Origin: a virus
Taxonomy: Duplodnaviria > Caudoviricetes
Direction: 5' to 3' (one strand)
IMG/VR virus record: IMGVR_UViG_3300030397_000458
Coordinates: 1-61,915 of that record
Length of the DNA stretch: 61,915 nt
Shown: positions 90 through 61,130 of the stretch, piece after piece
How the letters are laid out: every line of letters starts with the position of its first letter
How positions within the stretch are numbered: the first letter of the stretch is position 1
Made by a program: the position numbers and the translations under genes
Notes under the pieces: model-generated
Seen by the model: only the letters and a program-made list of their open reading frames with translations
What the model was told of the DNA's origin: nothing
The model's database searches: none

Positions 90-836
90 ATGCCAAAAAA
101 GACAGTTCCTGAATACCCCTACGACGTGTGGCTATCAAAGAAAAGGATAACACTCAAACGTGGAGTAGACTTTGACGAAATGCTCCACCCTCGCAGCGTA
201 GCACAGACTATAAGAAACTACTTGAACAGAAAACGCGCAGAAGTAAGAAAAGGAATGTCAGTCAGTATTCCAGACAATAATACGCTGCACATCAACTTCT
301 TCAACATTGAGATCCGTGGCGCAGATTCTGAATCCAAATTCGACGAAGACACTATCAACTGGTTTATCGGCATCGACCCTGGCAGGTCAGGCGGAATCGC
401 AATAGTGAATAGATCAGGAACATCACTTATTGCACATAAGATGCCAGAGACAGAGAAAGACGTGCTCAGCGTGATGGAGAATCACAGTCAAAATTCTCGC
501 GCATACATAGAGAGAGTCAGCGCCATGCCAACAGACGGGGTAGTGAGCTCTTTCAAATTCGGCTACTCTTACGGCTCACTCGTCATGGCTCTAACTGCCT
601 GCAAGATATCTTTCGCGATCATCCAGCCTACTCTCTGGCAAAAATCAGTAGGTATGAGAAAAAGAAAGAATCTTAGGTCAAAAGAGAAGGAGAGCAAGAC
701 GAGCTGGAAGAACAGACTCAAACAAAAGGCACAACAGCTCTATCCTAAAACAAAAATCACATTAGCAACAGCAGACGCTGTGCTGATTGCCGAATCGTGT
801 AGGTTGGAATATCACTCTCTTTCAGGAGAAAAGTAA
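90..836 (+). CDS. RuvC-like Holliday junction resolvase with extra N-terminal domain
   Basis: FIGIDPGRSGG, YIERVSAMP..GVVSSFKFG, P..WQK and ADAVLIA motifs of phage RuvC; ATG at 90 preferred over 27. Confidence 0.8.
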   Translation: MPKKTVPEYPYDVWLSKKRITLKRGVDFDEMLHPRSVAQTIRNYLNRKRAEVRKGMSVSIPDNNTLHINFFNIEIRGADSESKFDEDTINWFIGIDPGRSGGIAIVNRSGTSLIAHKMPETEKDVLSVMENHSQNSRAYIERVSAMPTDGVVSSFKFGYSYGSLVMALTACKISFAIIQPTLWQKSVGMRKRKNLRSKEKESKTSWKNRLKQKAQQLYPKTKITLATADAVLIAESCRLEYHSLSGEK

Positions 837-1495
837 TGTCATCGAAAAAGCAGCAACAAAAGTCAGTCAAGACAAAGACAACAAAATATTCACTGCACGT
901 CGAAAAGTGGAAAGACTGCCAAGCATGCTCATGTGCTCAAGGGCGCAACAGAGTAGTACTGGCAAGAGGCGACGTGCCTTGTAAAGTGTTATTTATAGGT
1001 GAAGCTCCAGGCGAGTCAGAGGATACGCTGGGCAGTCCTTTTGTCGGTGTTGCCGGGCACTTGTTAGAGCAGAAAATCATCAGAAACGTATTCTGTGATA
1101 AGCTCTCAGGCATGACTCGCGCATTCACAAACATTCTGGCCTGTATTCCAAGGGAGGACACAGAAGACAGAAAAAGAGGAAGCAAGTTAGCTGAGCCAGA
1201 GCATGAACAGGTAGATGCTTGCCAGCCGAGACTCGCAGAATTTATTAAGATCTGTAACCCAAAGCTCATCATCTGTCTAGGTAAGCACGCACGAGAATGG
1301 GTAGGAGGCGACTTCAAATTCAGCTTGAAAGTGAACGTCCCTTGTATCCCTGTTATCCACCCCTCAGCTATCAACAGAATGCCTCTCGCGAAAAAGAGCC
1401 TGGAATGCCAACGAGCAGTAGTTATCATCCAAGACGCTATTGATAAGTACATCACAAACAACGCGCCTTACGTCAACGAAGAGCCACCATTCTAG
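836..1495 (+). CDS. udg: Uracil-DNA glycosylase family 4
   Basis: CxxC Fe-S ligands, IGEAPG, G.PFVG.AG, TN...C.P and HPS motifs. Confidence 0.88.
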   Translation: MSSKKQQQKSVKTKTTKYSLHVEKWKDCQACSCAQGRNRVVLARGDVPCKVLFIGEAPGESEDTLGSPFVGVAGHLLEQKIIRNVFCDKLSGMTRAFTNILACIPREDTEDRKRGSKLAEPEHEQVDACQPRLAEFIKICNPKLIICLGKHAREWVGGDFKFSLKVNVPCIPVIHPSAINRMPLAKKSLECQRAVVIIQDAIDKYITNNAPYVNEEPPF

Positions 1496-1545
1496 CTCTC
1501 TCTCTCTCACAAAGATATAAGAAAAAAGGGAAGACAAAAAGTAAC

Positions 1546-2685
1546 ATGAGCAAATTTACAGACAAACTGAAAGAGCTTGGCATCGACGACCACTATGTAA
1601 CCAATCCTAAAAAAAGAGAAATGCTCTGGCGAGGACCACAGGTGGATGGAATTACTTACAGCTTACTATCACGGTTTATGGTCTGTCCTGAGAGGTTCTT
1701 CTGGCTCGTCTACCAAGGACTGAAGCCGACACCGAAATTCAACCACAGGATGGAGTACGGCAACTTATGGCACACTTGCGAAGAGCACGCACATAAAGGA
1801 GAGAAGGCATGGAAGTCAGAGCTCAAAAAGTATTCTGATTCTCTATTGAGCACCTACCCTCTGGATCGCGAGCAAATTAGAAAATGGACTACTCTCTGCG
1901 CCTTACAGTTCCCACACTATCTGAAATATTGGGATCAACAATCAGAATTTGAATCCAAAAATAAGAAAGAAGAGAGGGAGGTAGTCATAGGAACAGAGCT
2001 TGAATTCAACGTCAGATATCCTACTACCTTCCTTCCAGGAGAGAGTGTGCGACTTCGCGGGAAGTTGGATAAGGTATTCACTCATCAAGGCATGTGCTGG
2101 CATCAAGAGAACAAAACGAAGTCGAGCATAGACGAATTTGAGCTACAGACGCGCCTTACTTGTGACATGCAAAGTATGATCTACTTAATCGCTCTTTACC
2201 TCTCAGATATCATTAAGGAGGATCAGGAAACAGCCGGAGTAAGGTATAATGTCGTGCGCCGTCCACTATCGGGAGGGAAAGGCACAATCAGGCAGAAACA
2301 GCCAACAAAGAGCAATCCCTCAGGCGAGTCACTGGAAGACTACTACGACAGGGTAGAGAGTTACTTCGACAACTACCCTGAAGAATTCTTTATGCGTTGG
2401 GATGTGATCGTAACAAAACAAGAGGGACTGGCGTTCGCTCAAAAAGTCTTGACACCTGTTCTCACTCGCCTGACTAACTGGTATCGATGGGTAAAGCACT
2501 GCGTTACAATAGGCGACGTTGAGCTACGTTGGCTGGCACCAGGAGGGATACACTACCAGCATCCATACGGTATCTATAATCCATTACTGGAAGGAGGAGC
2601 GAGCGACTTAGACAATCTCATCAACACAGGAAGTGAAGTAGGATTGTCACGCACAGATACACTGTTTCCAGAGTTATCACAGTAA
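1546..2685 (+). CDS. PD-(D/E)XK exonuclease (RecB/Cas4-like)
   Basis: YS.LSRF..CP, GNLWH, RGKLD...ENKT and Q...Y motifs. Confidence 0.75.
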   Translation: MSKFTDKLKELGIDDHYVTNPKKREMLWRGPQVDGITYSLLSRFMVCPERFFWLVYQGLKPTPKFNHRMEYGNLWHTCEEHAHKGEKAWKSELKKYSDSLLSTYPLDREQIRKWTTLCALQFPHYLKYWDQQSEFESKNKKEEREVVIGTELEFNVRYPTTFLPGESVRLRGKLDKVFTHQGMCWHQENKTKSSIDEFELQTRLTCDMQSMIYLIALYLSDIIKEDQETAGVRYNVVRRPLSGGKGTIRQKQPTKSNPSGESLEDYYDRVESYFDNYPEEFFMRWDVIVTKQEGLAFAQKVLTPVLTRLTNWYRWVKHCVTIGDVELRWLAPGGIHYQHPYGIYNPLLEGGASDLDNLINTGSEVGLSRTDTLFPELSQ

Positions 2686-2702
2686 AAAGAAAGCGAGCAA
2701 CG

Positions 2703-3539
2703 ATGCCAAGAGTCAACAAACTACGAAAAAACACAGCCAAGTCAAAGAGAGAAGTATCAGAAAGTAGTATCTTCTCGCAAGTTACTTCTGTAGGCGACGT
2801 ACCAGACAGAGGAATCAAGCTGAATCTATATGGGAGGAACGGAACTGGAAAGACAACTCTCGCTTGCACTTTCCCTAAGCCTCTACTATTAGTAGGATTT
2901 GAGGATGGTACACGATCAGTCAGACGTGTAGAAGGTGTTGACTTTATATATCTCAAGTCAACAGAGCATATTCGAGAGCTCACAGAGGGAGCAGTCGAGC
3001 AGGGATATAAGACTCTCGTTCTCGACACAGCAACGAGTCTTCAGGATTTGATTCTATGCGAAATCATGAAATGGGACGACCAACCTGTACAAATGAGCTT
3101 CGGGACAGTATCACGTAATCAGTATAGGCAACGCGCAGAGAAGACGAAAGAGATCCTCCGATTGTTCCTTGAATTGCCTATAAATGTTATTGTGCTGGCA
3201 CAAGAGAAGAACCACACTAACCTGGATGAAGAGAGTAGTGATAGTGACGTAATTGCACCATTCATCGCGTCTGCGTTAGGCGCTTCAACAACGGGATGGC
3301 TTCAGGACTGTTGTGACTTTATCTGCCAGACGTTCACACGAGAGCGAAGCGAAGTAAAAAAGACAAAGGTAGGAGACAAGGAGATATCAACATCAGTCAA
3401 GACAGGGCAAATCGAATTCTGCTTGAGAACGCAGCGAGGCAACCCGACCTACGCAGCGAAGATCAGAGCAGACAGAAACGAAAATATACCTGATTTTATC
3501 GTTGATCCGACTTACGAAAAGCTGGCGAAATACCTCTGA
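2703..3539 (+). CDS. Sak4-like AAA ATPase (recombination)
   Basis: Walker A YGRNGTGKTT and LVLDT Walker B; lies between exonuclease and SSB-like gene. Confidence 0.8.
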   Translation: MPRVNKLRKNTAKSKREVSESSIFSQVTSVGDVPDRGIKLNLYGRNGTGKTTLACTFPKPLLLVGFEDGTRSVRRVEGVDFIYLKSTEHIRELTEGAVEQGYKTLVLDTATSLQDLILCEIMKWDDQPVQMSFGTVSRNQYRQRAEKTKEILRLFLELPINVIVLAQEKNHTNLDEESSDSDVIAPFIASALGASTTGWLQDCCDFICQTFTRERSEVKKTKVGDKEISTSVKTGQIEFCLRTQRGNPTYAAKIRADRNENIPDFIVDPTYEKLAKYL

Positions 3540-3646: not shown

Positions 3647-4771
3647 ATGGCACGACAATCAAAGCAATCAGCGTTTCTGGCAAAGCTCGGAGCCAAAGGT
3701 ATCAAGGCACACGAGGAGCATAAGTCATCAGAGGTCGAATTCGATACATTCGGCGACCTTCCACCAGGGATCAATGGAGGTGTGGCGCAGCTCAAAGAAT
3801 GCAAGCTCGACACGTACAGCAAAGGAGATATGGCAGGGGAGTACTACTTTCTCGCACGAGGAGTAGTAGTCTCACCTGTCGAGCACGAAGGTCTCCACGT
3901 ACAGGGACTATCAACAATGATCATGGAGCCCATCTGCGAGACACCAGGCAGATCAAGAGAGTCAGTGAGCGATCATCTGAAACAAGTGTACAACGAGCTG
4001 AAAAAGCTGGGCCTTGAGATTCCTGACGACATCGAAAATCTGGAGCCCGCACTGGAAGCACTGAAAGAGGTACAACCTTACTTCACATTCCGCACCTGGC
4101 AGGGTGCAGCAACAGAGGAATTCCCGAATCCAAGAGTCAACCATTCATGGTCTGGGGCTATCAACTACAACGGAGAGACAGAGAGCAGTCAAGGAGTCAA
4201 TGATACTCTTGGCGATATTGAAGATGATGACGAACAGGAGGAGGAGGAGGAGGAAGAGGAAGAGGAAAAGGAGGAGCAAGTAAGATCTGAATCCAAAAAG
4301 CCGACTAAGAAGCGAGCAACCAGAAAAAAGAAGGAACCAGAGCCAGAATTTGATGAATTCAATGACTTGTACAGTATCGCTGAGAAAGCAGAAGATCAAG
4401 ACGAAGAGGCGCAAGAAAAGCTGGAGAATCTGGCAAAAGAGGCAGGAATCCCACAGACAGAAATCGACGATGCCGACACATGGAAAGACCTGGTTGATAT
4501 GATCCAGCTCTCAATGCAGACAGAAAGTGAAAGCACAGAAGACGACAATGACGATTCGGAAAACGAAGAAGAAGAATTCGAGCCACAGGTCGAAGACGTG
4601 TACAACTTCCGACCACCAAACAGCAAGGGCGTTTTCTCAAAGAGGACCAAACCTATTGAGGTCGAAGTCATCAAAGTGAACAAACGAAAGAGGACGTGCG
4701 ACGTGCGAGACTTGTCAGATTTGAGCAATGTATTCAAAGGACTACCGTGGAGCCGACTCGAAACAGCATAG
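3647..4771 (+). CDS. Putative ssDNA-binding protein with long acidic region
   Basis: Position after Sak4, LPPG N-terminal motif, Glu-rich tract. Confidence 0.5.
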   Translation: MARQSKQSAFLAKLGAKGIKAHEEHKSSEVEFDTFGDLPPGINGGVAQLKECKLDTYSKGDMAGEYYFLARGVVVSPVEHEGLHVQGLSTMIMEPICETPGRSRESVSDHLKQVYNELKKLGLEIPDDIENLEPALEALKEVQPYFTFRTWQGAATEEFPNPRVNHSWSGAINYNGETESSQGVNDTLGDIEDDDEQEEEEEEEEEEKEEQVRSESKKPTKKRATRKKKEPEPEFDEFNDLYSIAEKAEDQDEEAQEKLENLAKEAGIPQTEIDDADTWKDLVDMIQLSMQTESESTEDDNDDSENEEEEFEPQVEDVYNFRPPNSKGVFSKRTKPIEVEVIKVNKRKRTCDVRDLSDLSNVFKGLPWSRLETA

Positions 4772-4856: not shown

Positions 4857-5173
4857 TGATGCCAAAACTCCCAAATTATAGCCAGCTTGTTGTTTATTTG
4901 ACTAAAATCTGCAAATCAGAAGGAGAGACACCCTATCCATGTTGTCAAGCTTGGAGAGTCGAAAGTGTAAACGAAGCGTATTCTATTATTGGTTGTCTCA
5001 AAGACGCATACCCGCAGTGTCAGTGGAGGAAAATGGGACCGACTGATTGGATAGGAGATTTGAGAAAAGGTTTAAAGACAGTGATCTCTTACAGATCATG
5101 TCTATCAAACCCCACAGGATTAAGCGATAGTATCTTACATTTTGTAAAAATTGATAGGAGAAAATATCCATGA
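4857..5173 (+). CDS. Hypothetical protein
   Basis: ORF with AGGA upstream, overlaps polA start (ATGA). Confidence 0.55.
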
Positions 5174-7278
5174 AAACTATCGCAATCGATACAGAGACAA
5201 CAGGTCTCGACTTGAGACACTCTTGCAAGCCTTACTTTGTTTCTATCTGTGAAGAAGGAGGAGAACAGAAATACTGGCACTGGCAAGTAAACCCTCTGAC
5301 ACGCCAGCCTATTATCCCAAAGTCAGACCTGATCGAGATACAAGACGAGATCAACATCCGACACCGTTACAGCAGGAAGGTATTCCACAACAGCAAATTC
5401 GATGTGCTTGCTCTCCAGTCAATCGGATTCGGTAAATGGGACTGGTCGCGAACAGATGACACTCTGATTGCAGGTCACTTGCTCGCAAGTAACAGACCTC
5501 ACAATCTAACCTCTATGGTTCTTGAATATCTGCAAACCAATATCCAGCCTTACGATGACGCACTACAAAAATCGTGCAACGCTGCGAGACGTACAGCCCG
5601 GAAGCACTTTCCTGAATGGAAGATAACCACAAAACTCATGGAAGGCTTACCATCAGCTTCTCAGAAGCTGTGGAAGTGTGACACCTGGCTACCTGGTCAA
5701 ATCGCTGACGCACTTGAATATGAAGATGACCACGAATGGCGTACCGTGCTAGAAGAATATGCGAACGTAGATAGTGCAGTGACTCTGGTGCTCTGGCAGA
5801 ACTTATATAAGCTCATGCAAGACAGAGGACTGCTCAAGATCTACGAATCGCGAAAGAAAGATATGCAAATCGCACTTGAAATCGAAGACAGAGGCGTGAC
5901 AATCTCACAAGAGAGGACAGAGGAGAAGCTATTGGAATATAAAGAAGAAGTAGAACGGATAGAGAAGGTGTGCAAAGGGATTGCGCAGACGTTTGGATAT
6001 GACTTGACTCTACCAAAAAGCGGTACAAATCACTCTCTTGTGAAATTCATTTATGGAGAAAAAAAAGACAGTAGCACATGGCTCGATCCTGAGTTTGAGC
6101 ATAAAAACCTGGGGATCAAGCCAGTGCTGTGGACGAAAACAGGCAACCCGTCACTAGCAAAAGATGCTATTGATATATACAAGCTGACACTGAACGCACG
6201 AACAAAGCAGTACTTGTTCATCAAAAAAATCTCAGAGAGGAGCAAGCGAGCAACAGCTCTTTCTTACATGGAATCTTATCAACGTTTTTGGATTCAAAAT
6301 AAAGGAGAAAGGTGGTCGCGACTCTACCCGAATCTAAACCCTACAGGTACAGTCACTCTGAGGATGAGCTCCAGTAATCCCAACGAGCAGAACATATCAA
6401 AGAAAGAAGACTTCAACCTCCGTTACATCTTTGGTCCAGCACCAGGAAGAGAATGGTATTCGATTGATGCAAAGAATATAGAGCTGCGCATACCAGCATA
6501 CGAGTCAGAGGAAGAGAGCTTGATCCAATTATTTGAGAGACCTGACGACCCACCATATTACGGGAGCAATCACCTGCTTTGCTGCCATATCTTGCATCCA
6601 GAAAAATTCGATCAATGCCTATCTGATGGCGAATCATTCAAGGACAAGTATAAGTCAACATGGTATCAATGGACAAAAAACGGCAACTTCGCCGTGCAGT
6701 ACGGAGCAATTGAGTCATCAGGAACAGCAGATAGGGCTTATCACTTAGAGGGCGCACAGAGGATAATCCAGAGCAAATTCACAAAGTTAGCCAAGCTGAA
6801 TCAGGCACAAATCGCCTTTGCTGAGAGAAACGGATACGTTGAAACTATGCCCGATAAGACAGTCGATCCGAGAAGAGGCTACCCTCTGCAATGCACGCGC
6901 ACAGAGCACGGAAGGATCAAACCTACAGTACCTCTCAACTACCATGTACAAGGTACAGCTATGTGGTGGATGCACAAAGCTATGATCAGGTGTCACGAAT
7001 TTCTGAGCCAGAGGTACAACGCGAATCATCAGCCAGAGAACCACGCCTATATGATCATGCAGGTACATGATGAAATCGTATTTGATCTTCCATCTGGCGT
7101 GCGTAAAGATCACAAACCAGACGACTGGGAGCACAACACAAACAGAGCAGTCATCAAGCAACTGAAAGTATTAATGGAGAGAGGAGGAGATGATATTGGA
7201 ATCCCTACTCCGTGTGACGTGGAATGGCATCCACGCAGCTGGAGTGAGGGAATCAACGTATCAGCTTACTGTGATTAA
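5170..7278 (+). CDS. polA: DNA polymerase family A with 3'-5' exonuclease
   Basis: IDTETTG, HNSKFD, TGT.T.RMSSSNPN.QNI, motif A DAKNIELR, motif B KNGNFAVQYG, motif C QVHDE. Confidence 0.95.
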   Translation: MKTIAIDTETTGLDLRHSCKPYFVSICEEGGEQKYWHWQVNPLTRQPIIPKSDLIEIQDEINIRHRYSRKVFHNSKFDVLALQSIGFGKWDWSRTDDTLIAGHLLASNRPHNLTSMVLEYLQTNIQPYDDALQKSCNAARRTARKHFPEWKITTKLMEGLPSASQKLWKCDTWLPGQIADALEYEDDHEWRTVLEEYANVDSAVTLVLWQNLYKLMQDRGLLKIYESRKKDMQIALEIEDRGVTISQERTEEKLLEYKEEVERIEKVCKGIAQTFGYDLTLPKSGTNHSLVKFIYGEKKDSSTWLDPEFEHKNLGIKPVLWTKTGNPSLAKDAIDIYKLTLNARTKQYLFIKKISERSKRATALSYMESYQRFWIQNKGERWSRLYPNLNPTGTVTLRMSSSNPNEQNISKKEDFNLRYIFGPAPGREWYSIDAKNIELRIPAYESEEESLIQLFERPDDPPYYGSNHLLCCHILHPEKFDQCLSDGESFKDKYKSTWYQWTKNGNFAVQYGAIESSGTADRAYHLEGAQRIIQSKFTKLAKLNQAQIAFAERNGYVETMPDKTVDPRRGYPLQCTRTEHGRIKPTVPLNYHVQGTAMWWMHKAMIRCHEFLSQRYNANHQPENHAYMIMQVHDEIVFDLPSGVRKDHKPDDWEHNTNRAVIKQLKVLMERGGDDIGIPTPCDVEWHPRSWSEGINVSAYCD

Positions 7279-7610
7279 TCTCTTGCAGCGTTTAAGAGCA
7301 GACGACCACGGGGAGTTATTGCAAAGACATACCTGCGTCCGTCTTCCTCATGGTCGAAGTACATCTCAGTAACCAGTCCTTTTGTAGAAAGAGAGTTTTT
7401 ATGGATTTTTCCTTTCCGAGACTCAGATCTGAGGTTCTCACTCAGATTCTGCCAGTACCCCGTCCGCTCGTAAATCTCTTCGTAGCAGAGCTCACGACCT
7501 GCCTTTTTGAGAGCAAAGAGTATGCGGTATTGAGTGACTGATAAACCTATCTTGTGCGCCTTCGCTCTCTCCCACTTTTGGGCTTTTGGTGGTGTCTTTT
7601 TGTTAATCAT
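7275..7610 (-). CDS. Putative winged-helix DNA-binding protein
   Basis: LSVTQYRIL..L, ELCYEEI, GLV and ITPRGR wing pattern; only counter-strand gene in the left arm. Confidence 0.6.
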   Translation of the reverse strand: MINKKTPPKAQKWERAKAHKIGLSVTQYRILFALKKAGRELCYEEIYERTGYWQNLSENLRSESRKGKIHKNSLSTKGLVTEMYFDHEEDGRRYVFAITPRGRLLLNAARD

Positions 7611-7702
7611 AATAACCTCCGTTCATCAATGAAATCTGAATCCAAATTCATTGTACCACAAACGTTTTTGGATTCAAACTCGGTAGCAAAAAGGAAAAAG
7701 AA

Positions 7703-9079: not shown

Positions 9080-11392
9080 ATGCCAAAAAGAGACAATACG
9101 CCAATTGCTTTGCGTCCCTATGAATTTCATGGATTGGATCTTGAGTGGGGAGAGAGAAATGCAGAAGCAACGTCGACTTGTCCTTTTTGTCATTCTGAAT
9201 CCAAATTCAGTATCAACATCGAATCAAGCAAATTCAAATGCTTCAAATGTGCCGAATCAGGCAACGCCACAAGCTTCTTATCAAAGATCTATCGAGAATG
9301 CGAGATACAGGAAGGCTCCGCGAAGTCTCTCCTGAAAGAGAGAGGATTGAGATACTTATCAACGATTGAAGCATGGGGCTTGAAATGGTCACACTTACAG
9401 AATGAATGGATCGTGCCCGGATTCTCGACACCAAAAAAGCTACACCAGCTCTACCGGTATGTGAGGATCAAGAACAAGAAAACAGGAAAATGGTCGCGTG
9501 TGCTGCTCCCTACACCAAGCACGCAAGAAAGGAAGAGAGAGCAAGGAGAGAGCAGTCACGGCATATTTGGATTGAATTTATGGGACGACAAAAAGCAGGT
9601 AGTCTACATCACAGAGGGAGTATGGGACGGGATGGTGTTGTATGAATCACTACGATTCCTCCGAGTGGATGAAAATGGCAAGTTGATCAGCACAAGCAAC
9701 GTCAAAAAGAGCTTGTACAACGAAGTGAATATCATCTCTATTGCAGGTGTGCATGGTCTGAGCTCGAAGCTTGCACGACTACTTGCAGGCAAAGACGTAA
9801 CAATTCTATTCGATAATGACTATCCAAAAACAGTTAAAGTAGGGAGTAGAGAGAAGGTACTGGAGCCAGCAGGTTACCGTGGCGCAAGGGAAGTGACAGA
9901 GACACTTGTTAGTTGTGGAGAGCCACCAGAGAGGATTAGCTATCTGAATTGGGGAGAAGGAGGGTACACAAAAGACCTGCCAGACGGAACAGATTTACGC
10001 GACGTGCTTACCTCTGATATTGCATCATCCTCTCTTTCAGGAAGAGCAAGGGCGTTGACTTCAGTCCTGGAGAGAATCGAGCCAGTCAAAGACGATTGGA
10101 TATCAACAGCAAAGAACAGCAAAACAAAGCCAGGCACTGTCGAGATAGAGCTACTACCATGCCAGAAGTGGGTGGCACTTATCAATGCGTGGCGTAAACC
10201 AATGAAATGGACAGATGGACTAAACAGAGCACTTGCAGCAATGCTTGCATCTGTTGTATCCACAAAGACATTAGGAGATCAGCTCTGGCTAAAAATCATA
10301 GGTCCAGCGAGCTGCGGGAAATCAACGCTGTGCGAAGCGATAAGCACAAACAAAAAGTATATCGTCGCAAAGTCAACCATAAGAGGCTTTCACTCAGGAT
10401 TCAAAACAGACGGAGCAGGAGAAGAAGACAACTCGCTGATCGCACAATTATACGACAAAACGCTGATTACAAAAGATGGCGATACGCTGTTGCAATCCCC
10501 AAACTTAGGCCAGATACTCGCAGAAGCAAGAGATATATATGATTGCACTTCTCGCACGCACTACAGAAACAAGACATCTCGGAGCTACGAAGGTGTCAGA
10601 ATGACATGGCTTTTATGCGGTACAAGCTCACTGCGAAGCATCGACACAAGCGAGCTTGGAGAGAGATTTCTCGATTGCGTTATCATGGACGGTATTGATT
10701 CAGACCTTGAAGAAGACATACTCTGGCGAGTAGCAAACAGAGCTGACAGGTCAACAAACTATGAAGCAAATGGGAAACCAGAGTCAAATCAAGATCCAGA
10801 GATGTCAAAGGCGATGCAGCTCACAGGAGGGTACGTCTCTTATTTGCGTGAGAACGCGAAAGATCTGCTCGAAAAAGTAGTGACAGGTAAGCAGTCACTC
10901 AGAAAGATTATGAAATTCGGGAAATTCGTAGCCTACTTACGCGCCAGACCATCAATGCGACAAGAAGAGAACGCAGAGCGAGAATTTGCTGCACGTCTGG
11001 TGAGCCAGCACGTCAAGCTCGCAAAGTGTCTTGCAGTTGTCCTGAATAAAGAGACACTGGATAAAGAAGTGCTTGCTATGGTCAGAGCTATATCAATCGA
11101 CACTGCGAGAGGTAGAACGCTCGACATTTTGAGAGAAATGCGCAAAGAGCGAGCAAAGGGATTGCCTGTCAAATCTATATCAATAAGGATCAACGAAGCT
11201 GAAAACTCTGTCAGAAAGCTTCTCCGTTTCATGCAGAAAATCGGTATTGTAGAACGAGTAGAAGAGACGACACATAGGACAAGAGGAGTCAGAGCAGTAA
11301 CGCACTGGCGTATGACCGAAGAAATGTATGACCTCTACTTGTTCGTAATTGAATCCAAATTGAGGAGAAAACGTGCCAATACGAGCAGCTAA
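9080..11392 (+). CDS. Primase-helicase (Zn finger + TOPRIM + P-loop ATPase)
   Basis: CPFC..CFKC, ITEGVWDG, FDND, GPASCGKSTL. Confidence 0.85.
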   Translation: MPKRDNTPIALRPYEFHGLDLEWGERNAEATSTCPFCHSESKFSINIESSKFKCFKCAESGNATSFLSKIYRECEIQEGSAKSLLKERGLRYLSTIEAWGLKWSHLQNEWIVPGFSTPKKLHQLYRYVRIKNKKTGKWSRVLLPTPSTQERKREQGESSHGIFGLNLWDDKKQVVYITEGVWDGMVLYESLRFLRVDENGKLISTSNVKKSLYNEVNIISIAGVHGLSSKLARLLAGKDVTILFDNDYPKTVKVGSREKVLEPAGYRGAREVTETLVSCGEPPERISYLNWGEGGYTKDLPDGTDLRDVLTSDIASSSLSGRARALTSVLERIEPVKDDWISTAKNSKTKPGTVEIELLPCQKWVALINAWRKPMKWTDGLNRALAAMLASVVSTKTLGDQLWLKIIGPASCGKSTLCEAISTNKKYIVAKSTIRGFHSGFKTDGAGEEDNSLIAQLYDKTLITKDGDTLLQSPNLGQILAEARDIYDCTSRTHYRNKTSRSYEGVRMTWLLCGTSSLRSIDTSELGERFLDCVIMDGIDSDLEEDILWRVANRADRSTNYEANGKPESNQDPEMSKAMQLTGGYVSYLRENAKDLLEKVVTGKQSLRKIMKFGKFVAYLRARPSMRQEENAEREFAARLVSQHVKLAKCLAVVLNKETLDKEVLAMVRAISIDTARGRTLDILREMRKERAKGLPVKSISIRINEAENSVRKLLRFMQKIGIVERVEETTHRTRGVRAVTHWRMTEEMYDLYLFVIESKLRRKRANTSS

Positions 11393-14828: not shown

Positions 14829-14853
14829 CGACAAAACGAAGGGAGCAAAAACT

Positions 14854-48774: not shown

Positions 48775-49178
48775 TCATTCCAACGCAAGAAATAAGAGGT
48801 GGACATGGTCAAGTGCTCGCTCTCATTGTCCGAGACATCGACATTCCGCCAAGCGCGACAGGCATTACTTTCATAACTGAATCCAAATTCAGCATGCAAG
48901 TTGGCTTTATGAGGAGACCGAAGAATCATAAGGTCCAGATGCACGAGCATGTAACACTCGACAGAGTCATTCCCGACATAGTCGAAGTACTGTTTATCAA
49001 GTCAGGACTGGTGGAAGTGCAGGTAACGGACGGCTGGGAGATACAGAGCGAGATACTGGAATCAGACGATATTTGTATCTTTCTTTCAGGAAAACATGGA
49101 CTGGTCTTCCATTCGGAATCAGAGATCTGGGAAGTGAAGCAGGGGCCGTACTCGGAGAAAGAGAAATCCTATGCGTAA
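48771..49178 (+). CDS. Cupin-fold sugar-pathway protein
   Basis: H.H...EVL...G, GKHG and EVKQGPY motifs. Confidence 0.75.
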   Translation: MIIPTQEIRGGHGQVLALIVRDIDIPPSATGITFITESKFSMQVGFMRRPKNHKVQMHEHVTLDRVIPDIVEVLFIKSGLVEVQVTDGWEIQSEILESDDICIFLSGKHGLVFHSESEIWEVKQGPYSEKEKSYA

Positions 49179-50175
49179 TGTAGTGCCCTACGAACGTCTT
49201 GAATCCGATTTCGCGTCGTTCAACGGATTACCAGAGCAGCGCATGGTATCCTGCTCGTCAGGAACCGCGGCACTTCACCTGGCGTTGGAGTCACTCCAAT
49301 TAGATCCTGGCTCAGTTGTTGCTATCCCAAACTATGCAATGATCTCTGTGGCCCGCGCAGTGTCCCTGGCTGGACTGCAACCCCTGCTCATCGGCTGCAA
49401 AAACGATGACCTTCTCATCAATCCTACAGCTCTCTCTACAGCATTCGAGCTGTACGGAGACCTGCTCCGCGCTGTCATCACTGTAGACACCTACGGACGT
49501 AGGGCGTGCTTGCCAACCATTCACAACATGATCCAGCGAGACAAGCGAGATTGTAAAGTTATTGAAGATTTGTCAGAAGCACATGGCGCTGTCCCTCACA
49601 AAGAATCAGATGCCGTGTGCTGGAGCTTCTACCAGAACAAAGTGATATCAGGAGAAGAAGGAGGAGCTGTCTACTTCAAGAATAAAGAGAACGCCAATCT
49701 GTGCCGACAGCTCAAAAACATCGGATTTTCTCCTGAGAGAGACTATACGCATATCGCGCGTGGACACAACTACAGACTCGCTAATACACTTGCACAGCTC
49801 ATCATTGATTCTCTTGAAACCTATGATGAGACAGAGTGGCGAGTCAATGAGGCTGAGCAAGAAAAAATGATTCCCGAGCAGTGGAGACAACCACCACGCA
49901 ACAGATACTGGATGACAGATATCAGAATCCCAGGCATGACACTCGAGCTACAGACAGAGGTAGTGAGGTCTCTGAGAGATTCAGGCATTGACAGCGTCAG
50001 ATTTGGATTCAAATTGATATCATCACAAGAGGAATACAGGGCTGCACAAGTCATAGACTGGGGAGAATGCTGGCGAGCTGTGTCAGAGGTGCTAAGCTTT
50101 CCTCTGCTCCCGGCTTACGAAATTCGACGTGCGATGATGAAGATACAAGAAATCATATCTAAGAAATTGACTTGA
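49171..50175 (+). CDS. DegT/DnrJ/EryC1/StrS sugar aminotransferase
   Basis: SSGTAALHLAL, IED.SEAHGA, SFYQNKVISGEEGG (PLP Lys), G.NYRL. Confidence 0.9.
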   Translation: MRNVVPYERLESDFASFNGLPEQRMVSCSSGTAALHLALESLQLDPGSVVAIPNYAMISVARAVSLAGLQPLLIGCKNDDLLINPTALSTAFELYGDLLRAVITVDTYGRRACLPTIHNMIQRDKRDCKVIEDLSEAHGAVPHKESDAVCWSFYQNKVISGEEGGAVYFKNKENANLCRQLKNIGFSPERDYTHIARGHNYRLANTLAQLIIDSLETYDETEWRVNEAEQEKMIPEQWRQPPRNRYWMTDIRIPGMTLELQTEVVRSLRDSGIDSVRFGFKLISSQEEYRAAQVIDWGECWRAVSEVLSFPLLPAYEIRRAMMKIQEIISKKLT

Positions 50176-51804: not shown

Positions 51805-52014
51805 CTAATCGGTCACGTAGCAGTCAGTAGGTATCCCGTATACCTCAGTTGTGATGACTCCTGCCCCTCCGTCTGTCTCTGATGCCTCGATGCTGGCTTC
51901 TCGCTCTTCTTCTGTTGCATTGCGAAGTGCCTGCCCTGTGTTGTACGAGTACAACACAGCTGCAGACCAGTCGATCATGGTGACGTTTGTTTTTGTAGGT
52001 TGTGTCATGGTCAT
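51805..52014 (-). CDS. Hypothetical protein
   Basis: RBS GGAG, directly behind a promoter. Confidence 0.6.
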   Translation of the reverse strand: MTMTQPTKTNVTMIDWSAAVLYSYNTGQALRNATEEEREASIEASETDGGAGVITTEVYGIPTDCYVTD

Positions 52015-52094: not shown

Positions 52095-52142
52095 CCGATT
52101 TTCAAAAAGTTTTTTGGATTCAAATTTCAGACAAGACCAGGA

Positions 52143-53609
52143 CTATTCGAGGTCTTCGTCTTCGTACTCGTCGTCGTATTCTTCATCGTCAAGCTCTTCG
52201 TCTTCAAAATCATCCTCCTCATCCTCGTCTGGATCATCAACGACAGGAGCAGAGTTAACTGACTGCTTGGCTTTGAGCTTCTTTGCTATCTTCTTGACCT
52301 CCTCTTTGGCTTCTCTCTCTTCCCTGAGCTGCTCCGCCTGGTCATAGATTTCATCCTCTGTGGGATCATCTTCTGAGTCAGTCATATCAGTCGTTTTCTT
52401 CGCTGCCTTCTCTGACTGCTCTTTCGCTGAGATATCCCCGAAGTCGATTCCACCAGCATCAATGTACGCCGATGGGGCTAAGAAACGATGACCGTCCTGA
52501 TCATCTTCATATTCGAGCTTGAGTCTCTTCTCTGTGAGATTCCTATCCTGGCTCACATGGTTCCACGCAGTGATTAAGAGTAATACTCGCTCGGAGAAGG
52601 AAATCTCAAGCCGTCCAGTCTCAGGGTGGACGTAGCTCGCGTAGACTTTGCGCAATGGCTTCATTTGTGGCGTATCCTGAGCGATGTTAGCCCAGAAGTC
52701 TGCTGCAGCATCCCATGCTGAAAAGTCAAGATATTTTTCAGAAGGTGTGCTTGCTTGCCAGTATTCGTCACCGTCTGACTTACAGCTCGCGAACAAATAC
52801 ATCAGTCCAGCAGCATAGCCTGGTGCGATGTACTCGCTGATACCTTTCTGATCATTCTTTGTCAGTATATGAGAGACACACTCAAGCAGTCTACTGTGTC
52901 GAGCCAGGAAATCGAGACTCTCACTGTGTGTCCTACGTGGAGCAAACGCACTATCACCTGCCCCCGTGCGCGACCACAACAAGCGAATCGCATGATCTGT
53001 CATGGCCGATGCAACTTTACGCTCTGAGCTCTTCATGTGTGAGAAGTATTCGCTGCGATAGATTACGTCCATCAAGGAACGTGGCTTGCACGTATCCATC
53101 GTGTTTACTACTTCGTCCGATTCTTCGACCCCGTACACAACGAGCTTCTCCATTGTGAGAGGTTTCTTGTGCATCTTCTTATAGAATGCACGTCTCTCAG
53201 GATCACGGGTAAGTCTTTCCTGATCGGCCAGAATCAGGCTTATTAGCTGGTGCTGTCCATTGAGTATTAACCCTGTTTCGCCAATGATGATGGGCTCAGC
53301 ATTGAACCGCCATTTCTTGCGAAGGTGCTCCTGAATCAGAGTGTCGATGGTGCCAGAGTAAAGAGGGCGATTGGTCACGTTGTTGGCCAGCCTGACCTTC
53401 GTTCCCTCTCTATCCTTGAGAGCGAAGTCAGACCCGAATGAGACTTCCTCTGTCTCCTCCTCCCAGCCAAGCAGATCAGAGCACTGCTCTACTGTCAGCG
53501 CGTCAGCACCAATGTGCTTGACCACCTCGATCTCTTTGTAGACGATTGGCCGCGAGAGCTGAGTATGAGTAGTCGTCTTTTTCTTCTTTGCTGCTCTTGT
53601 TTTCGGCAT
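52143..53609 (-). CDS. ParB/DGQHR-like domain protein with acidic tail
   Basis: NRPL...W..N.EPIII...G.ILNGQHQL, and D....R motif. Confidence 0.55.
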   Translation of the reverse strand: MPKTRAAKKKKTTTHTQLSRPIVYKEIEVVKHIGADALTVEQCSDLLGWEEETEEVSFGSDFALKDREGTKVRLANNVTNRPLYSGTIDTLIQEHLRKKWRFNAEPIIIGETGLILNGQHQLISLILADQERLTRDPERRAFYKKMHKKPLTMEKLVVYGVEESDEVVNTMDTCKPRSLMDVIYRSEYFSHMKSSERKVASAMTDHAIRLLWSRTGAGDSAFAPRRTHSESLDFLARHSRLLECVSHILTKNDQKGISEYIAPGYAAGLMYLFASCKSDGDEYWQASTPSEKYLDFSAWDAAADFWANIAQDTPQMKPLRKVYASYVHPETGRLEISFSERVLLLITAWNHVSQDRNLTEKRLKLEYEDDQDGHRFLAPSAYIDAGGIDFGDISAKEQSEKAAKKTTDMTDSEDDPTEDEIYDQAEQLREEREAKEEVKKIAKKLKAKQSVNSAPVVDDPDEDEEDDFEDEELDDEEYDDEYEDEDLE

Positions 53610-53730
53610 AGTACATATCCTTCTTTTTGTTGAGCCAGTATGTACTGGCTGAAGTGTGAGTGAGGCCCAGCGACAATGCCAGGCCTCAAGTAATCGTAGG
53701 CGGATCTGAATCCAAATTCAAGGTGCGTTG

Positions 53731-54606: not shown

Positions 54607-54665
54607 AGTAGTGTAAACTGAATCCAAAAACAGAGGGAGAGCGTTTCTCCCTCTCTAGTGAAACG

Positions 54666-56152: not shown

Positions 56153-56180
56153 ATACTAGCATGACCAGACACGATGTCAA
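56153..56180 (-). promoter_or_regulatory. Sigma70-like early promoter
   Basis: TTGACA-N16-TAGTAT with TG extension, AT-rich upstream element. Confidence 0.75.
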
Positions 56181-57226: not shown

Positions 57227-57322
57227 GAAACTCCTCTTGAATTTGAATCCAAAAACGGAACGTAGAATTGAGCGAATGAGAAAGTAAGGGCGACTAACGA
57301 GGGCGCGGGCTGACTACCTCAA

Positions 57323-57828: not shown

Positions 57829-57877
57829 GCGATGCTCCCTTGTGAGTAAGGAATTTTTGTTGTCTCTACTTTTTAAT

Positions 57878-57904
57878 AGTATAACTAACCGAGAAGGAAG
57901 TCAA
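57878..57904 (-). promoter_or_regulatory. Sigma70-like early promoter (variant)
   Basis: TTGACT-N15-TATACT with the same AT-rich upstream tract. Confidence 0.5.
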
Positions 57905-59101: not shown

Positions 59102-59343
59102 TATTTATTCTTCCTATTCTTCAATTTGAATCCAAATTTGATCAATGCGACTGGTGCCGCGACAACGAGACAGGACACTGAAAGGCAAGGGCCAGGTGTG
59201 AACCAGTCGATAATCGAGCAGGCAGTAAACGCTGCCTTCTCGGCTCGTTCACCGAATGCAACTCCGACAACCTTTGATGAGATCAGAGGAACAGTGTTGA
59301 TGATTTTGTAAGCTTGCTTGGCTCGACTGGTGAATTTCGACAT
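59101..59343 (-). CDS. Small membrane protein
   Basis: Hydrophobic C-terminal half; directly behind a promoter. Confidence 0.55.
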   Translation of the reverse strand: MSKFTSRAKQAYKIINTVPLISSKVVGVAFGERAEKAAFTACSIIDWFTPGPCLSVSCLVVAAPVALIKFGFKLKNRKNK

Positions 59344-59393: not shown

Positions 59394-59422
59394 ATACTAG
59401 CATCATCAGAGAGCAACGTCAA
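59394..59422 (-). promoter_or_regulatory. Sigma70-like early promoter within inverted repeat
   Basis: TTGACG-N17-TAGTAT; arms CTCTCTGATG/CATCAGAGAG. Confidence 0.75.
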
Positions 59423-60002: not shown

Positions 60003-60119
60003 TTCTCCAAAAAACGTGTGAATCTGAATCCAAATTTGAAACGTAGAACAGAAGAAAAAGTAGGGTAAGGTGTGCCTCTCGTGCACTGTTCCCTACTTTC
60101 TCTCTCTTTCAGGAAAAAA

Positions 60120-60413: not shown

Positions 60414-60431
60414 GGACTCTTTCTTTCTTTC

Positions 60432-60734
60432 TTACTTTCTGGCCACCATCTCGTTGGCCAAGCCCATCAATCTCTTGCTCTGGATCAGTGTCCCTAAGGA
60501 CATCAAAAACAGTGCTGTGTTGATCTCTCGTTGTCTCGTCAGCTTCTCGGATCCACTGATCCTTGAGCTAATGGCAATCAAGACTGCAAACAAGATCGAC
60601 AAGGGCAGACAGACGAGTGCAGCGGTAATCTCAAGAATCCCTCTGACGATGTGATAGCCGATTGGCCGATCTGATGCTGTCAGTGCCTGTGCATCTGCGA
60701 TTGCGTTGGTGTGGATTCGATTGAACTGGCTCAT
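60432..60734 (-). CDS. Membrane protein
   Basis: TM helices; RBS GGAG; directly behind a promoter. Confidence 0.6.
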   Translation of the reverse strand: MSQFNRIHTNAIADAQALTASDRPIGYHIVRGILEITAALVCLPLSILFAVLIAISSRISGSEKLTRQREINTALFLMSLGTLIQSKRLMGLANEMVARK

Positions 60735-60776
60735 GTTTTTCTCCGTTTTGAGGAACGTTGTTTCTGATCTATAGTT

Positions 60777-60804
60777 ATACTAGCACAGATCAGAACAGAG
60801 TCAA
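60777..60804 (-). promoter_or_regulatory. Sigma70-like early promoter within inverted repeat
   Basis: TTGACT-N16-TAGTAT; arms TTCTGATCT/AGATCAGAA. Confidence 0.75.
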
Positions 60805-61130
60805 GAGAAATTTTCAAAAAAAGAAAAATTTTTTCTGGGCTAACTGTGGACCCCATCCTGGTCGGAAAAATGGAGTCTCAACATCTTCTCTCGAGCTACG
60901 CCTGGCTCGCAAGCAGGACGATCAGGATACACGGCCAGATGCTTGACCAGGTAGTACGTCGCGATAAGGCAAGTGACAAGAGTGATCATGTGCGACTCCT
61001 CAATTTTGAATCCAAAAACGAAACGTAGAATTGAGAGCAATTCCAGGTAAGGTACTGCTCTCAATTGAAAGTGAGCTGGCAGACTGATACCTCGCGTGCA
61101 TCGTCGTCTGCCAGCTCACTCAGAGAATCA

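Follow-up and report, generated by a model that had tools for sequence, protein, structure and literature searches.

A stretch of phage DNA 61,915 nt in length (the window) carries many scattered copies of one short word, M1, with the core TGAATCCAAA, and the question is what reads a word that lies both between genes and inside them. The initial annotation had counted 34 exact copies, and a recount over the whole window bore this out, with 25 copies on the + strand and 9 on the - strand; dinucleotide shuffles gave an expectation of 0.21 and a maximum of 3 in any of 100 shuffles. The 12-mer TTTGRATYCAAA is present 21 times against 0.01 expected. There are almost no degenerate copies, one-mismatch versions of M1 numbering 6 where 5.65 are expected. 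Non-coding DNA makes up 8.6% of the window, yet holds 19 of the 34 copies. The codon-aware enrichment check that had been proposed was also run, and the 15 copies within CDS, a count that rests on our own called CDS, compare with a mean of 0.58 and a maximum of 4 in 300 synonymous-codon shuffles. The recurring ESK, LNPN and GFK peptides noticed earlier inside ORFs were seen again, and 9 of 13 ESK tripeptides are encoded as T-GAATCCAAA. The enrichment, the few mismatched copies and the CDS excess together indicate strong selection on the DNA and sharp specificity.

M1 is a pseudo-palindrome of 12-16 bp that is found in both orientations, independent of transcription direction, and its extended form tends towards AATTTGAATCCAAAWW. 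The part of M1 that never varies is not symmetric, and at the right flank the copies divide equally between AA and TT. The strand ratio agrees with base composition (expected ratio 2.37, P=0.85). This agreement and the use of both orientations point to a protein that binds duplex DNA, and not to a promoter or an RNA signal; M1 as a promoter was rejected on its orientations. M1 contains no G+C-rich hairpin. A second word, M2, is a one-strand word with copies at 21753, 27189 and 36188, each 32-35 nt before an M1 copy. The sites are as follows (exact M1 copies unless stated; wHTH is the winged-helix gene described below).

329-338, +: within ORF 27-836, reads SESK
1950-1959, +: PD-(D/E)XK nuclease ORF 1546-2685, in a loop missing from relatives G001 and G003
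4288-4297, +: ORF 3647-4771, low-complexity linker, SESK
6287-6296, -: DNA polymerase A ORF 5170-7278, loop with indels versus relatives
7637-7646, +: around +1, just downstream of the wHTH -10; 26 nt before the wHTH start
7667-7676, -: includes the -35 hexamer of the wHTH promoter; 26 nt before start 7703
9196-9205, +: primase zinc finger (CPFCHSESKFS)
11350-11359, +: 3' end of the primase-helicase ORF, 13 nt before GTG 11373
13052-13061, +: directly past the stop at 13048
15467-15476, -: 20 nt past strong terminator 15409-15446; 3 nt before ATG 15480 (small terminase)
18003-18012, -: 27 nt before nrdJ start 18040
21787-21796, +: 5' end of the portal ORF; 34 nt after M2 at 21753
21831-21840, +: direct partner of 21787, 44 nt further on
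23624-23633, -: 9 nt before in-frame ATG 23643 (head morphogenesis gene)
24960-24969, +: one-mismatch copy TAAATCCAAA, M1-like flanks, in a 3.6-kb gap
25638-25647, +: one-mismatch copy TGAATCCAGA, M1-like flanks, in the 3.6-kb gap
27221-27230, +: 26 nt before major capsid protein start 27257; 32 nt after M2 at 27189
29402-29411, +: 30 nt before ATG 29442
30470-30479, +: codons 4-7 of ORF 30459-31268
32313-32322, +: within ORF 31994-32905 (LNPN)
33526-33535, -: 24 nt before ATG 33560
35029-35038, +: 19 nt before ATG 35058 (tail gene)
36223-36232, +: within ORF 36020-36373; 35 nt after M2 at 36188
40416-40425, +: 24 nt before ATG 40450
43234-43243, +: 13 nt before ATG 43257
43410-43419, -: within ORF 43257-43973 (FGFK)
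47298-47307, +: end of ORF 46247-47317; 13 nt before ATG 47321
48878-48887, +: within ORF 48771-49178
50002-50011, -: within ORF 49171-50175 (FGFK)
52113-52122, -: intergenic; 104 nt before the start of reverse-strand gene 51805-52008
53707-53716, +: intergenic; 97 nt before the start of reverse-strand gene 52143-53609
54619-54628, +: overlaps the T-tract of reverse-strand terminator 54654-54632; 24 nt before start 54594
57244-57253, +: early operon; 17 nt before reverse-strand start 57226
59127-59136, +: early operon; 25 nt before reverse-strand start 59101
60025-60034, +: early operon; 24 nt before reverse-strand start 60000
61007-61016, +: early operon; 17 nt before reverse-strand start 60989

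When spacing was compared with chance, M1 proved far more even than random placement allows (gap CV 0.55 versus 0.96, P=5e-5), with 3 gaps of less than 800 bp against 11.8 expected, and the evenness stayed significant with 21 sites forced onto gene junctions (P=3e-4). The larger gaps that the initial annotation had described over the ribonucleotide reductase, the tape measure and part of the glycosylation cluster were seen, at 3784 bp (nrdJ), 4193 bp and 3888 bp (part of the glycosyltransferase cluster) respectively, and there is an additional one of 3597 bp at 23624-27221. The three largest overlap nrdJ, the tape measure and three genes at 43970-46217, all with no match in relatives. Many copies do sit just upstream of starts, as had been claimed: 19 of 34 are within 30 nt of a start codon, some of these starts being our own choice, and by the site listing and distances 8 are sense and 11 antisense relative to the downstream gene.

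One small gene stands out by its position among these sites.

7275-7610, - strand: MarR-like winged-helix (wHTH) gene, 111 aa, candidate binder
7650-7677, - strand: sigma-70-like promoter of the wHTH gene from a promoter scan (TTGAAT, 16 nt, TACAAT; TG before the second hexamer)

It is the sole reverse-strand gene called within a + strand block, and two M1 copies, 7637 and 7667, lie 30 nt apart on opposite strands over its promoter. A profile of the 31-member family matches MarR chains in the PDB (best E=2.6e-4), and an Atlas model of the protein (pTM 0.79) aligns to MarR clusters with TM 0.66-0.70; Pfam matches are weak, with MarR_2 in 4 and PadR in 3 of the 31 members. The earlier statement that M1 is not an ordinary operator is true of the array taken together but not of the 7637/7667 pair, which has the layout of an ordinary autoregulatory operator.

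Another phage, G006 (75,155 bp, 100% complete with terminal repeats), is distant from the window but syntenic with it, with protein identities of 39% for PolA, 41% for MCP and 46-58% for TerL; the two array phages have G+C contents of 46.5% (window) and 53% (G006). G006 encodes the closest traceable homologue of the window's wHTH (45% identity), which has the same location and runs on the other strand from PolA. It also carries 78 exact copies of TTTGATCAAA against 0.07 expected, and 1 one-mismatch copy. The extended G006 form, AATTTTGATCAAAATT, is a perfect palindrome and equals the extended form of M1 at 13 of 16 positions. Its copies too are evenly spaced (gap CV 0.56, with 0 of 5000 random placements as low), and 34 of the 78 are within called ORFs. 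In both phages a site copy overlaps the wHTH gene's own promoter; in G006 the palindrome begins at the last base of the -10 of a scan-called promoter at 2379-2407. Ten independent positions among the 34 M1 copies could be mapped onto G006, and a G006 site lies no more than 100 nt away from 6 of these (2.08 expected, P=0.010) and no more than 120 nt away from 7 (P=0.004). In the PD-(D/E)XK nuclease the palindromes of the two phages are at the same aligned codons, 9 nt apart. Part of this agreement may come from compact genomes having few spots that tolerate a site.

M1 is absent from five other relatives, G001-G005. The window's wHTH has no tblastn match in these five at E<=1e-3. Genes of the wHTH family are present at the same genomic place in seven further relatives (L022-L026, L031 and L028, the last being the same record as G003), and an eighth phage, L257, also encodes a member; no dispersed exact word was found in any of the eight. 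Membership of the family alone is therefore no predictor of an array, and the absence from G001-G005 counts only for close homologues. In a tree of 47 family rows, made by a quick search with SH-aLRT support and no bootstrap, the wHTH proteins of the two array phages are sisters with a support of 84, which is graded weak, and 6 of 8 proteins from array-less phages fall in another clade (support 92). The window and G006 also have in common an N6/N4 DNA methyltransferase for which G001-G005 gave no match, so covariation does not single out the wHTH.

We put at roughly 0.5 the probability that M1 forms an array of protein-binding sites that is bound by the autoregulated wHTH of 7275-7610; from the sequence comparison, this protein is the favoured candidate among the four binders named in the initial annotation. 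The reading proposed there, a site on the DNA for a probably dimeric protein, gains indirect support from the pseudo-palindrome, its two orientations, its forcing into ORFs, and the G006 palindrome array with the same wHTH. M1 would then be a predicted pseudo-palindromic site maintained in at least 34 copies, and its likeliest binder the phage's own small MarR-like wHTH, presumably acting as a dimer. With M1 over the -35 and +1 of its promoter, the wHTH would set its own level. The remaining copies would be spread such that no stretch of more than about 4 kb is without one, being placed in intergenic spacers where possible and otherwise forced into tolerant protein loops, and the bound protein may act on the DNA of the whole genome. 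The likeliest action would be to block or insulate against host RNA polymerase inside operons whichever way the site points, which in a seemingly virulent phage would resemble the effect of stoperators; the main alternative for the same binding would be an organising or protective coat. What we observe is how the sites are distributed and built, and that array and wHTH covary in two phages; that the protein binds, that it does so as a dimer, and every effect downstream of binding are what we infer. Why a transcription block should need copies in mid-ORF, or sites so evenly spaced, is not obvious. Genes for an integrase, a resolvase or a ParA-type ATPase were found neither in the window nor in the complete G006, which makes prophage silencing, the known use of stoperators, unlikely.

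The array could instead be bound by the ParB-like ORF 52143-53609, the HTH protein 24615-24899, a small undetected protein or a host factor, which we regard as unlikely. What ties the wHTH to the sites is layout and the covariation seen in two phages, no relatives were detected for many of the small early ORFs, and Cluster O phages with a similar array are also described as encoding a protein with a ParB-like domain (PMC4351075). Against these candidates, the ParB-like ORF, a name for which no Pfam match at E<=0.01 was found, has 43%-identical homologues in the array-less G001 and G003, and the HTH protein has homologues in all five relatives without M1. The specificity of a host factor would have to differ between the hosts of phages with 46.5% and 53% G+C, and the copies over the wHTH promoter in both phages would be left unexplained. 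It is improbable that M1 serves as an epigenetic mark that the phage N6/N4 adenine methyltransferase (11373-12743) reads or writes at the GAATC centre of the window motif or the GATC centre of the G006 motif, with the function lying in the methylation state and not in a repressor, or with methylation modulating wHTH binding. Both motif centres look like targets of adenine methylases, and the enzyme is encoded in both array phages with no tblastn match in G001-G005 at E<=1e-4. Methylases, however, read 4-6 bp, which leaves a palindrome of 12-16 bp and its even spacing unexplained; neither GANTC (402 versus 383.7 expected) nor GATC (360 versus 382.7) is enriched in the window, and two tryptophan codons of the G006 gene correspond to in-frame TAG in the window gene.

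We hold it just as improbable that the copies accumulated without cellular function by molecular drive, through biased recombination, repair or uptake. DNA uptake sequences are likewise described as exact, short, present in both orientations at about 1 per 1-2 kb and in unconstrained coding parts, with a steep fall from 0 to 1 mismatch (PMC1939737), and the genes unmatched in relatives under the three largest gaps would fit such a history. Uptake sequences are stated there, however, to have no particularly even spacing (PMC1939737), no other record rich in the M1 word was found, and both the copies over the wHTH promoter in the two phages and the positions common to them speak for a site that is read. 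A role as an RNA polymerase signal, whether as a terminator or as a promoter that a phage-modified polymerase would use, is very improbable. It would suit the start-proximal copies, the strong terminator followed by M1 alone and then the small terminase start, and the scan of 1-52 kb, where sigma-70-like sites are no more numerous than in shuffles and no + strand site has the form of the early promoters. It does not suit both orientations before genes of one direction, the copies in ORFs, or the perfect palindrome of G006; the early genes have separate clear promoters (TTGACx-16/17-TGnTAGTAT), a terminator would lack its G+C-rich hairpin, and there is no RNA polymerase gene or sigma factor among the ORFs scanned. 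Least probable is that M1 marks places where one strand is nicked site-specifically, the kind of break described in phages T5, tf and phiKMV. The nick motifs are exact 9-mers with 13-14 copies inside and outside genes and very few mismatched versions, but all those described are on one strand only (PMC3517423, PMC11780129), whereas M1 is on both. Moreover, the 7637/7667 pair is on opposite strands within 30 nt, and nicking the perfect palindrome of G006 would cut both strands. The one-strand word M2 suits this kind of motif better than M1 does.

Dispersed sites for one regulator have precedents. The KorB sites of plasmid RK2 and the C1 operators of phage P1 are operators of global repressors dispersed over a replicon of 60-95 kb, with a dozen or more near-identical sites, some far from promoters; their binders belong to protein families other than that of the wHTH candidate, and the sites are less dense than M1 and are not known to be evenly spaced. 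Nearest to M1 among known cases are the 17-bp dyad repeats of the Cluster O mycobacteriophages, Corndog and its relatives, with 34 copies in a siphovirus genome of ~70 kb (PMC4351075). As described there, the inverted-repeat arms are invariant, with just 3 one-mismatch sites, 14 copies are intergenic, 10 near gene 5' ends and 10-11 within genes, the central asymmetry is unlinked to transcription direction, and the phages have no integrase or parAB (PMC4351075). The likeness to M1 is in copy number, near-invariance, spread, asymmetry unlinked to transcription, lack of an integrase or parAB and presence of a ParB-like protein; the dyad sequence, TGTTCGGNNNCCGAACA, differs, and that array is denser at one genome end where M1 is evenly spaced. 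Its authors propose a dimeric binder and, in the account cited, single out no protein and assign no function (PMC4351075), whereas in the present case the array has one candidate that covaries with it in two phages. An array of such a kind was known earlier, without explanation, in other phages. The stoperators of Cluster A phages, bound by the L5 repressor, a phage protein, resemble M1 in recurring at ~1 per 2 kb (>20 copies of a 13-mer in a ~50-kb genome), in promoters and short intergenic spaces, where they stop elongating polymerase (PMC9283540). They are, however, asymmetric and bound by a monomer with HTH and 'stoperator' domains, work in one orientation to transcription only and serve prophage silencing (PMC9283540), whereas M1, a pseudo-palindrome, is free in its orientation and has 15 of its 34 copies in ORFs, and the search for lysogeny genes found none. 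The T1-like phage TLS has 21 copies of a 21-nt direct repeat, 18 of them intergenic, and like M1 the word is conserved upstream of start codons; unlike M1 the repeats are not palindromic and without exception point the way transcription runs, some 76 nt before the starts (PMC11447400). TLS encodes no RNA polymerase, and its authors liken the repeats to stoperators, the account assigning them no function (PMC11447400).

At the ends of the window, the first 17 bases and the last ~13 are an artefact that looks like an amplification primer, and one contig extends beyond 61902 into another copy of the M1 word.

The near-palindromic word TGAATCCAAA (M1) is the commonest 10-mer of the window genome, where it is present in 34 exact copies (25 on the + strand and 9 on the - strand) against 0.21 in dinucleotide shuffles, so the word enrichment pointed out in the initial annotation is upheld. 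The 12-mer TTTGRATYCAAA occurs 21 times in the window against 0.01 expected. The core is preceded by A (25/34), A/T, T (31/34) and T/C, and is followed by W, W, C/T and G/A. Copies with one mismatch number 6 against 5.65 expected and are thus at chance level, making M1 an all-or-none word; M1-like flanks accompany only two of these six (24960 and 25638), and the fully palindromic centre variants GAATTC and GGATCC are absent among them. The strand ratio of 25:9 fits base composition, which predicts 2.37 to 1 (P=0.85), and M1 contains no G+C-rich hairpin. When the proteins were held fixed in 300 synonymous-codon shuffles, 0.58 copies (maximum 4) were expected in coding sequence compared with the 15 present, a codon-aware result that bears out the earlier claim that the word is embedded in coding sequence. 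T-GAATCCAAA encodes nine of the 13 ESK tripeptides. Avoidance of a restriction site was considered as the cause of the asymmetric M1 centre and was rejected, as GAATTC shows no depletion (27 copies for 23.3 expected); GGATCC is scarce in the window (2 for 10.9 expected). A contig of a variant phage from sequencing run X4, covering 43175-43590, differs from the window at 33 of 416 letters. None of the 28 listed differences falls in M1 43234, M1 43410 or the second over-represented word at 43519 (M2, described below), a weak hint that the sites are conserved.

The rough evenness of M1 originally described also stands when tested against random placement, with a coefficient of variation (CV) of the gaps of 0.55 versus 0.96 (P=5e-5). 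Three gaps only are shorter than 800 bp (tight pairs of 30, 44 and 176 bp) against 11.8 expected, and once these pairs are merged the smallest gap is 898 bp. Even spacing holds with 21 of the 34 sites forced onto gene junctions (P=3e-4), and is therefore beyond what gene structure explains. As initially reported, the largest gaps lie over the ribonucleotide reductase gene nrdJ, the tape measure gene and part of the glycosyltransferase cluster; to these we add 23624-27221, in which the plausible degenerate copies at 24960 and 25638 both fall.

On our gene list (coding fraction 0.914, with a few start codons chosen by us), 19 of the 34 copies are intergenic and 15 are in ORFs. Nineteen copies lie no more than 30 nt upstream of a start codon, ahead of the ribosome-binding site where one is present, in agreement with the initial observation that many sit just upstream of starts. 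By our count 8 of these 19 are in sense and 11 in antisense orientation, so that orientation is independent of transcription. The 15 copies within ORFs occupy variable parts of proteins, such as an indel-rich loop of DNA polymerase A (PolA) and a low-complexity linker, and the copy in the PD-(D/E)XK nuclease gene lies within an 8-residue insertion relative to G001, a relative without M1. A placement of M1 at mosaic breakpoints was rejected, since junctions between conserved and unique genes are not enriched (8/27 versus 14/53, P=0.80). M1 is also separate from the five near-identical early promoters:

56153-56180, - strand, sigma-70-type early promoter
57876-57904, - strand, sigma-70-type early promoter
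59394-59422, - strand, sigma-70-type early promoter
60777-60804, - strand, sigma-70-type early promoter
61706-61733, - strand, sigma-70-type early promoter

These have the form TTGACx-16/17-(TG)-TAGTAT/TACTAT, with TGn before TAGTAT and a T/A-rich stretch in front; a TTTTTGAAAATTT-like stretch precedes four of the five, and each heads one small operon. Inside the early operons M1 is found at 61007, 60025, 59127 and 57244, where it directly precedes the ribosome-binding site of a promoter-distal gene.

One small protein is indicated as the candidate reader of M1, a MarR-like winged-helix protein (wHTH):

7275-7610, - strand, wHTH gene (111 amino acids), the only reverse-strand gene called inside the + block
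7677-7650, - strand, wHTH promoter predicted by promoter scan, TTGAAT-16-TACAAT with a TG

The predicted -35 element lies within M1 7667, and M1 7637 is at approximately +1; over this predicted promoter, the M1 pair is a classical autoregulatory layout. A search of 1.84 billion representative proteins gave 43 relatives at E<=0.001, and 31 of the 44 hits were aligned, the 13 excluded being mostly longer or multi-domain. When the resulting profile was compared with the PDB the top hits were MarR-family chains (best E=2.6e-4), and the ESM Atlas model (pTM 0.79) matched MarR clusters with TM scores of 0.66-0.70; Pfam hits were weak and below cut-off. The modelled fold is of the MarR-type winged-helix kind. 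With the window's own wHTH as query, no IMG/VR relative was found among the loci, and a word-indexed protein search returned only wHTH itself.

Ten of the 44 wHTH hits were looked up, and one of them, P0003 (45% identity), is encoded on a 75-kb IMG/VR contig of a distant syntenic phage, G006 (75,155 bp, direct terminal repeats, 100% complete). Synteny with the window is accompanied by identities of 39% for PolA, 41% for capsid and 46-58% for terminase, and the wHTH gene adjoins PolA on the opposite strand, as it does in the window. G006 carries 78 exact copies of its own palindrome, TTTGATCAAA, against 0.07 expected, and a single one-mismatch copy. Its extended consensus, AATTTTGATCAAAATT, equals extended M1 at 13 of 16 positions; the M1 dyad is imperfect and the G006 counterpart is a perfect 16-bp palindrome. 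The mean gap is 943 bp with a CV of 0.56, a value as low as which was reached in none of 5000 random placements, and 34 of the 78 copies (44%, the same as in the window) are inside called ORFs. In the predicted G006 wHTH promoter one copy begins on the final base of the -10 element, so that in both phages a palindromic operator lies over the reader's own predicted promoter.

Ten independent M1 positions of the 34 copies could be mapped to G006 through aligned orthologues, the others having no aligned counterpart. A G006 site lies within 100 nt of six of the ten (2.08 expected, P=0.010) and within 120 nt of seven (P=0.004). In the PD-(D/E)XK nuclease both palindromes are at the same aligned codons (...YWDQQSEFESKN... 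in the window, ...YWTQNFDQNS... in G006), in a loop that is missing from the relatives G001 and G003, and at this orthologous site one phage has AATTTGAATCCAAAAA where the other has AATTTTGATCAAAATT. From the shared positions the array appears to predate the divergence of the two phages, and a comparison of the two genomes suggests that the word changed in step across all copies. Individual sites thus persist at orthologous places while the word changes between phages, and two concrete candidate pairs emerge: M1 with the product of 7275-7610, and the G006 palindrome with the G006 homologue.

No close relative carrying M1 was found across GenBank phage, IMG/VR and metagenome searches. Megablast of 24 kb of the window against GenBank phages gave no match, and 24 IMG/VR loci around capsid or PolA homologues contained 0 or 1 M1 copy each. 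An IMG/VR scan with AATTTGAATCCAAA returned at least 117 stretches, with a single match in every one among the matches listed; a scan for paired copies returned 11 stretches, all of them chance hairpins, and the loci from these scans held no more than five M1 10-mers (in a record of 19% G+C). M2-spacer-M1 was matched by 69 metagenome stretches, in none of which M1 and M2 together exceeded four copies. With the G006 palindrome as query, the only IMG/VR records that showed arrays were G006 itself and two fragments matching it at 100% identity. Separately, the 13.5-kb locus of the relative G002, whose capsid is 58% identical, contains the 9-mer ATCCTCTAA 15 times, on both strands, against 0.12 expected; 13 of the 15 copies are inside long open frames and 13 further copies have one mismatch (3.2 expected). 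This may be another array with a different word.

The best explanation of M1 is an array of putative binding sites for the MarR-like protein. An autoregulated wHTH protein would bind M1 every 1-4 kb, acting as a dimer, and once bound would form an orientation-free block or insulator to the host polymerase. If true, such a block in either orientation would amount to a compact, portable, orientation-free transcription insulator. The bolder alternative to a polymerase block may be a coating or organising role for wHTH. M1 copies would then act as regularly spaced nucleation points: a phage 'chromatin' protein would land on them and spread, or bridge from one site to the next, until it covers the entire replicating genome and marks it as self, organising the DNA or shielding it from nucleases and host defences. 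We regard this as unlikely; if true, it would be a new form of viral chromatin. It requires every copy of the word to evolve in concert with the protein, as is hinted at by the orthologous nuclease site with its changed word, and homologues with basic tails in phages that have no array would achieve coverage without sequence-specific sites. Such homologues came from a whole-family search: seven relatives (L022-L026, L031 and L028, the last being the G003 record) have a wHTH gene at the corresponding position, and an eighth phage with a family member is that of locus L257. The wHTH proteins of all seven relatives have long lysine/alanine(/proline)-rich, linker-histone-like stretches before or after the winged-helix domain, and the L257 protein P0011 likewise has a lysine/alanine/proline-rich, linker-histone-like tail. 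One wHTH family member also matches Pfam HC2 (histone H1-like nucleoprotein).

The link between the array and wHTH as a binder of M1 has limits. tblastn of the window's own wHTH against the five relatives G001-G005 gave no match, and M1 is also absent from these records; no dispersed exact word was found in any of the eight phages that have a family member. A quickly built tree of 47 rows, made up of 40 hits shorter than 260 aa and 7 proteins read from loci, has the window and G006 proteins as sisters (SH-aLRT 84) and puts six of the eight proteins from phages with no array in another clade (SH-aLRT 92), which gives modest support to a grouping of the array phages. The N6/N4 methylase is also common to the window and G006 only; as it too covaries with the array, it stays a rival or partner of wHTH. 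The ParB-like ORF at 52143-53609, which the initial annotation had put forward as a candidate binder, does not covary: it has homologues in G001 and G003, both without the array, and gave no Pfam hit. In this M1 differs from arrays of the ParB-parS/KorB type, no covarying ParB-family binder having been found for it.

Among described systems, the closest case by comparison of array features is the 17-bp dyad repeat of the Cluster O mycobacteriophages. These genome-wide arrays of an exact short palindrome were reported in 2015 (PMC4351075) and left unexplained; the repeat has 34 copies without variation and three sites with one mismatch, about one third lie inside genes, placement is independent of transcription direction and lysogeny genes are given as absent. 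M1 resembles this repeat in having more than 30 near-invariant dyad copies genome-wide (34 exact, about two degenerate), both intergenic and within genes, and differs in sequence from the Cluster O consensus. An array of this type, compared by its features and with a differing consensus, is now seen in a presumably unrelated group of environmental phages. Cluster A stoperators (PMC9283540) and TLS repeats (PMC11447400) are oriented with transcription, unlike M1. Stoperators are moreover asymmetric 13-mers, whereas M1 is pseudo-palindromic and the G006 word a perfect palindrome, and their repressor, a monomer with an HTH and a stoperator domain, is set apart by description from the MarR-like candidate. 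They serve prophage silencing in temperate phages, whereas neither the window (87% complete) nor the complete G006 gave a match to PF00589, PF00239 or PF13614. With tyrosine integrase, resolvase and ParA-type ATPase all absent from these searches, both phages look virulent. The phage nick motifs described so far (PMC3517423, PMC11780129) are exact 9-mers on one strand only; unlike these motifs of the T5, tf and phiKMV types, M1 is on both strands and the G006 word is palindromic.

A one-strand habit is found in M2 (TCTTTCAGGA), whose 18 copies are all on the + strand, even in the region of reverse-strand genes.

Copies of M2 in the window (start coordinates, each +9)
818, 4843, 10033, 11629, 18864, 21753, 25036, 27189, 30803; + strand
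32143, 33640, 36188, 40895, 43519, 47509, 49082, 54068, 60105; + strand

M2 often stands as TATACTCTC-TCTTTCAGGA-GAAAA with a TATACT-like hexamer in front, and occurs in and outside ORFs, often directly before a start codon. Its spacing is even (CV 0.48, P=7.5e-4). M2 is also coupled in position to M1: within M1-M1 intervals 14 of the 18 copies are in the first 40% and 4 in the last 10% (KS P=0.007), and three copies are 32-35 nt upstream of an M1. The G006 counterpart, TATACT-CTTTC-TTCCAGAGAA, occurs 10 times on the sense strand and twice on the opposite one, and CCCCCCAGAGAAG-like words are the M2 counterparts in L257. Given its one-strand habit, M2 may serve as a late promoter whose start region is conserved, or else as a nick motif confined to one strand as in T5 and tf.

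The window record is linear (61,915 bp, estimated completeness 87%), with + strand genes from 1 to approximately 50.2 kb and - strand genes over the remainder. Its two ends carry the same word:

1-17, primer-like 17-mer
61903-61915, the same 17-mer in inverted orientation

This 17-mer resembles an amplification primer more than phage DNA; as it is also found at the loose ends of other contigs, it is probably an assembly artefact. A contig of sequencing run X1 extends beyond 61902 into another M1 copy, so the genome continues past the window. Family scans identified a uracil-DNA glycosylase superfamily protein, the PD-(D/E)XK nuclease, an AAA_24 ATPase, DNA polymerase A, a primase-helicase, a split N6/N4 DNA methylase, a PAPS-reductase-like protein, small and large terminase, portal, a head morphogenesis protein, glycosyltransferases and UDP-glucose dehydrogenase, and, among the reverse-strand genes, two FGE-sulfatase-domain proteins. 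An Rfam scan gave no RNA family at gathering thresholds, and a search for the capsid protein among genome contigs gave no relative. Two genes are interrupted:

11373-12743, N6/N4 DNA methylase, one frame save for two in-frame TAG codons
16154-16771 and 17018-17968, large terminase in two ORFs, with a 66-codon same-frame ORF (16787-16987) between

Both TAG codons of the methylase are tryptophan in the G006 homologue (TGG, one G-to-A change each), and the window gene may be a pseudogene or depend on suppression. Genome-wide stop-codon recoding was rejected, since few ORFs merge when TAG is taken as a sense codon and the window has no tRNA gene. The terminase halves are contiguous in G001, and no intron was found within the split gene by Rfam. 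The small neighbouring ORFs 14571-14828 and 14809-15105 are paralogues: each product has a hydrophobic N-terminus, continues with PVQPDGSGRG... and ends in a Gly/Pro-rich tail. An 89-codon ORF at 8406-8675 matches the first 38 positions only of a C-5 cytosine methylase model and looks like a gene remnant. The methylase region of G006 contains an inserted ORF at approximately 70700-71500 on the - strand, in which an HNH-like motif (…HHKDRNKLND…) was read by eye.
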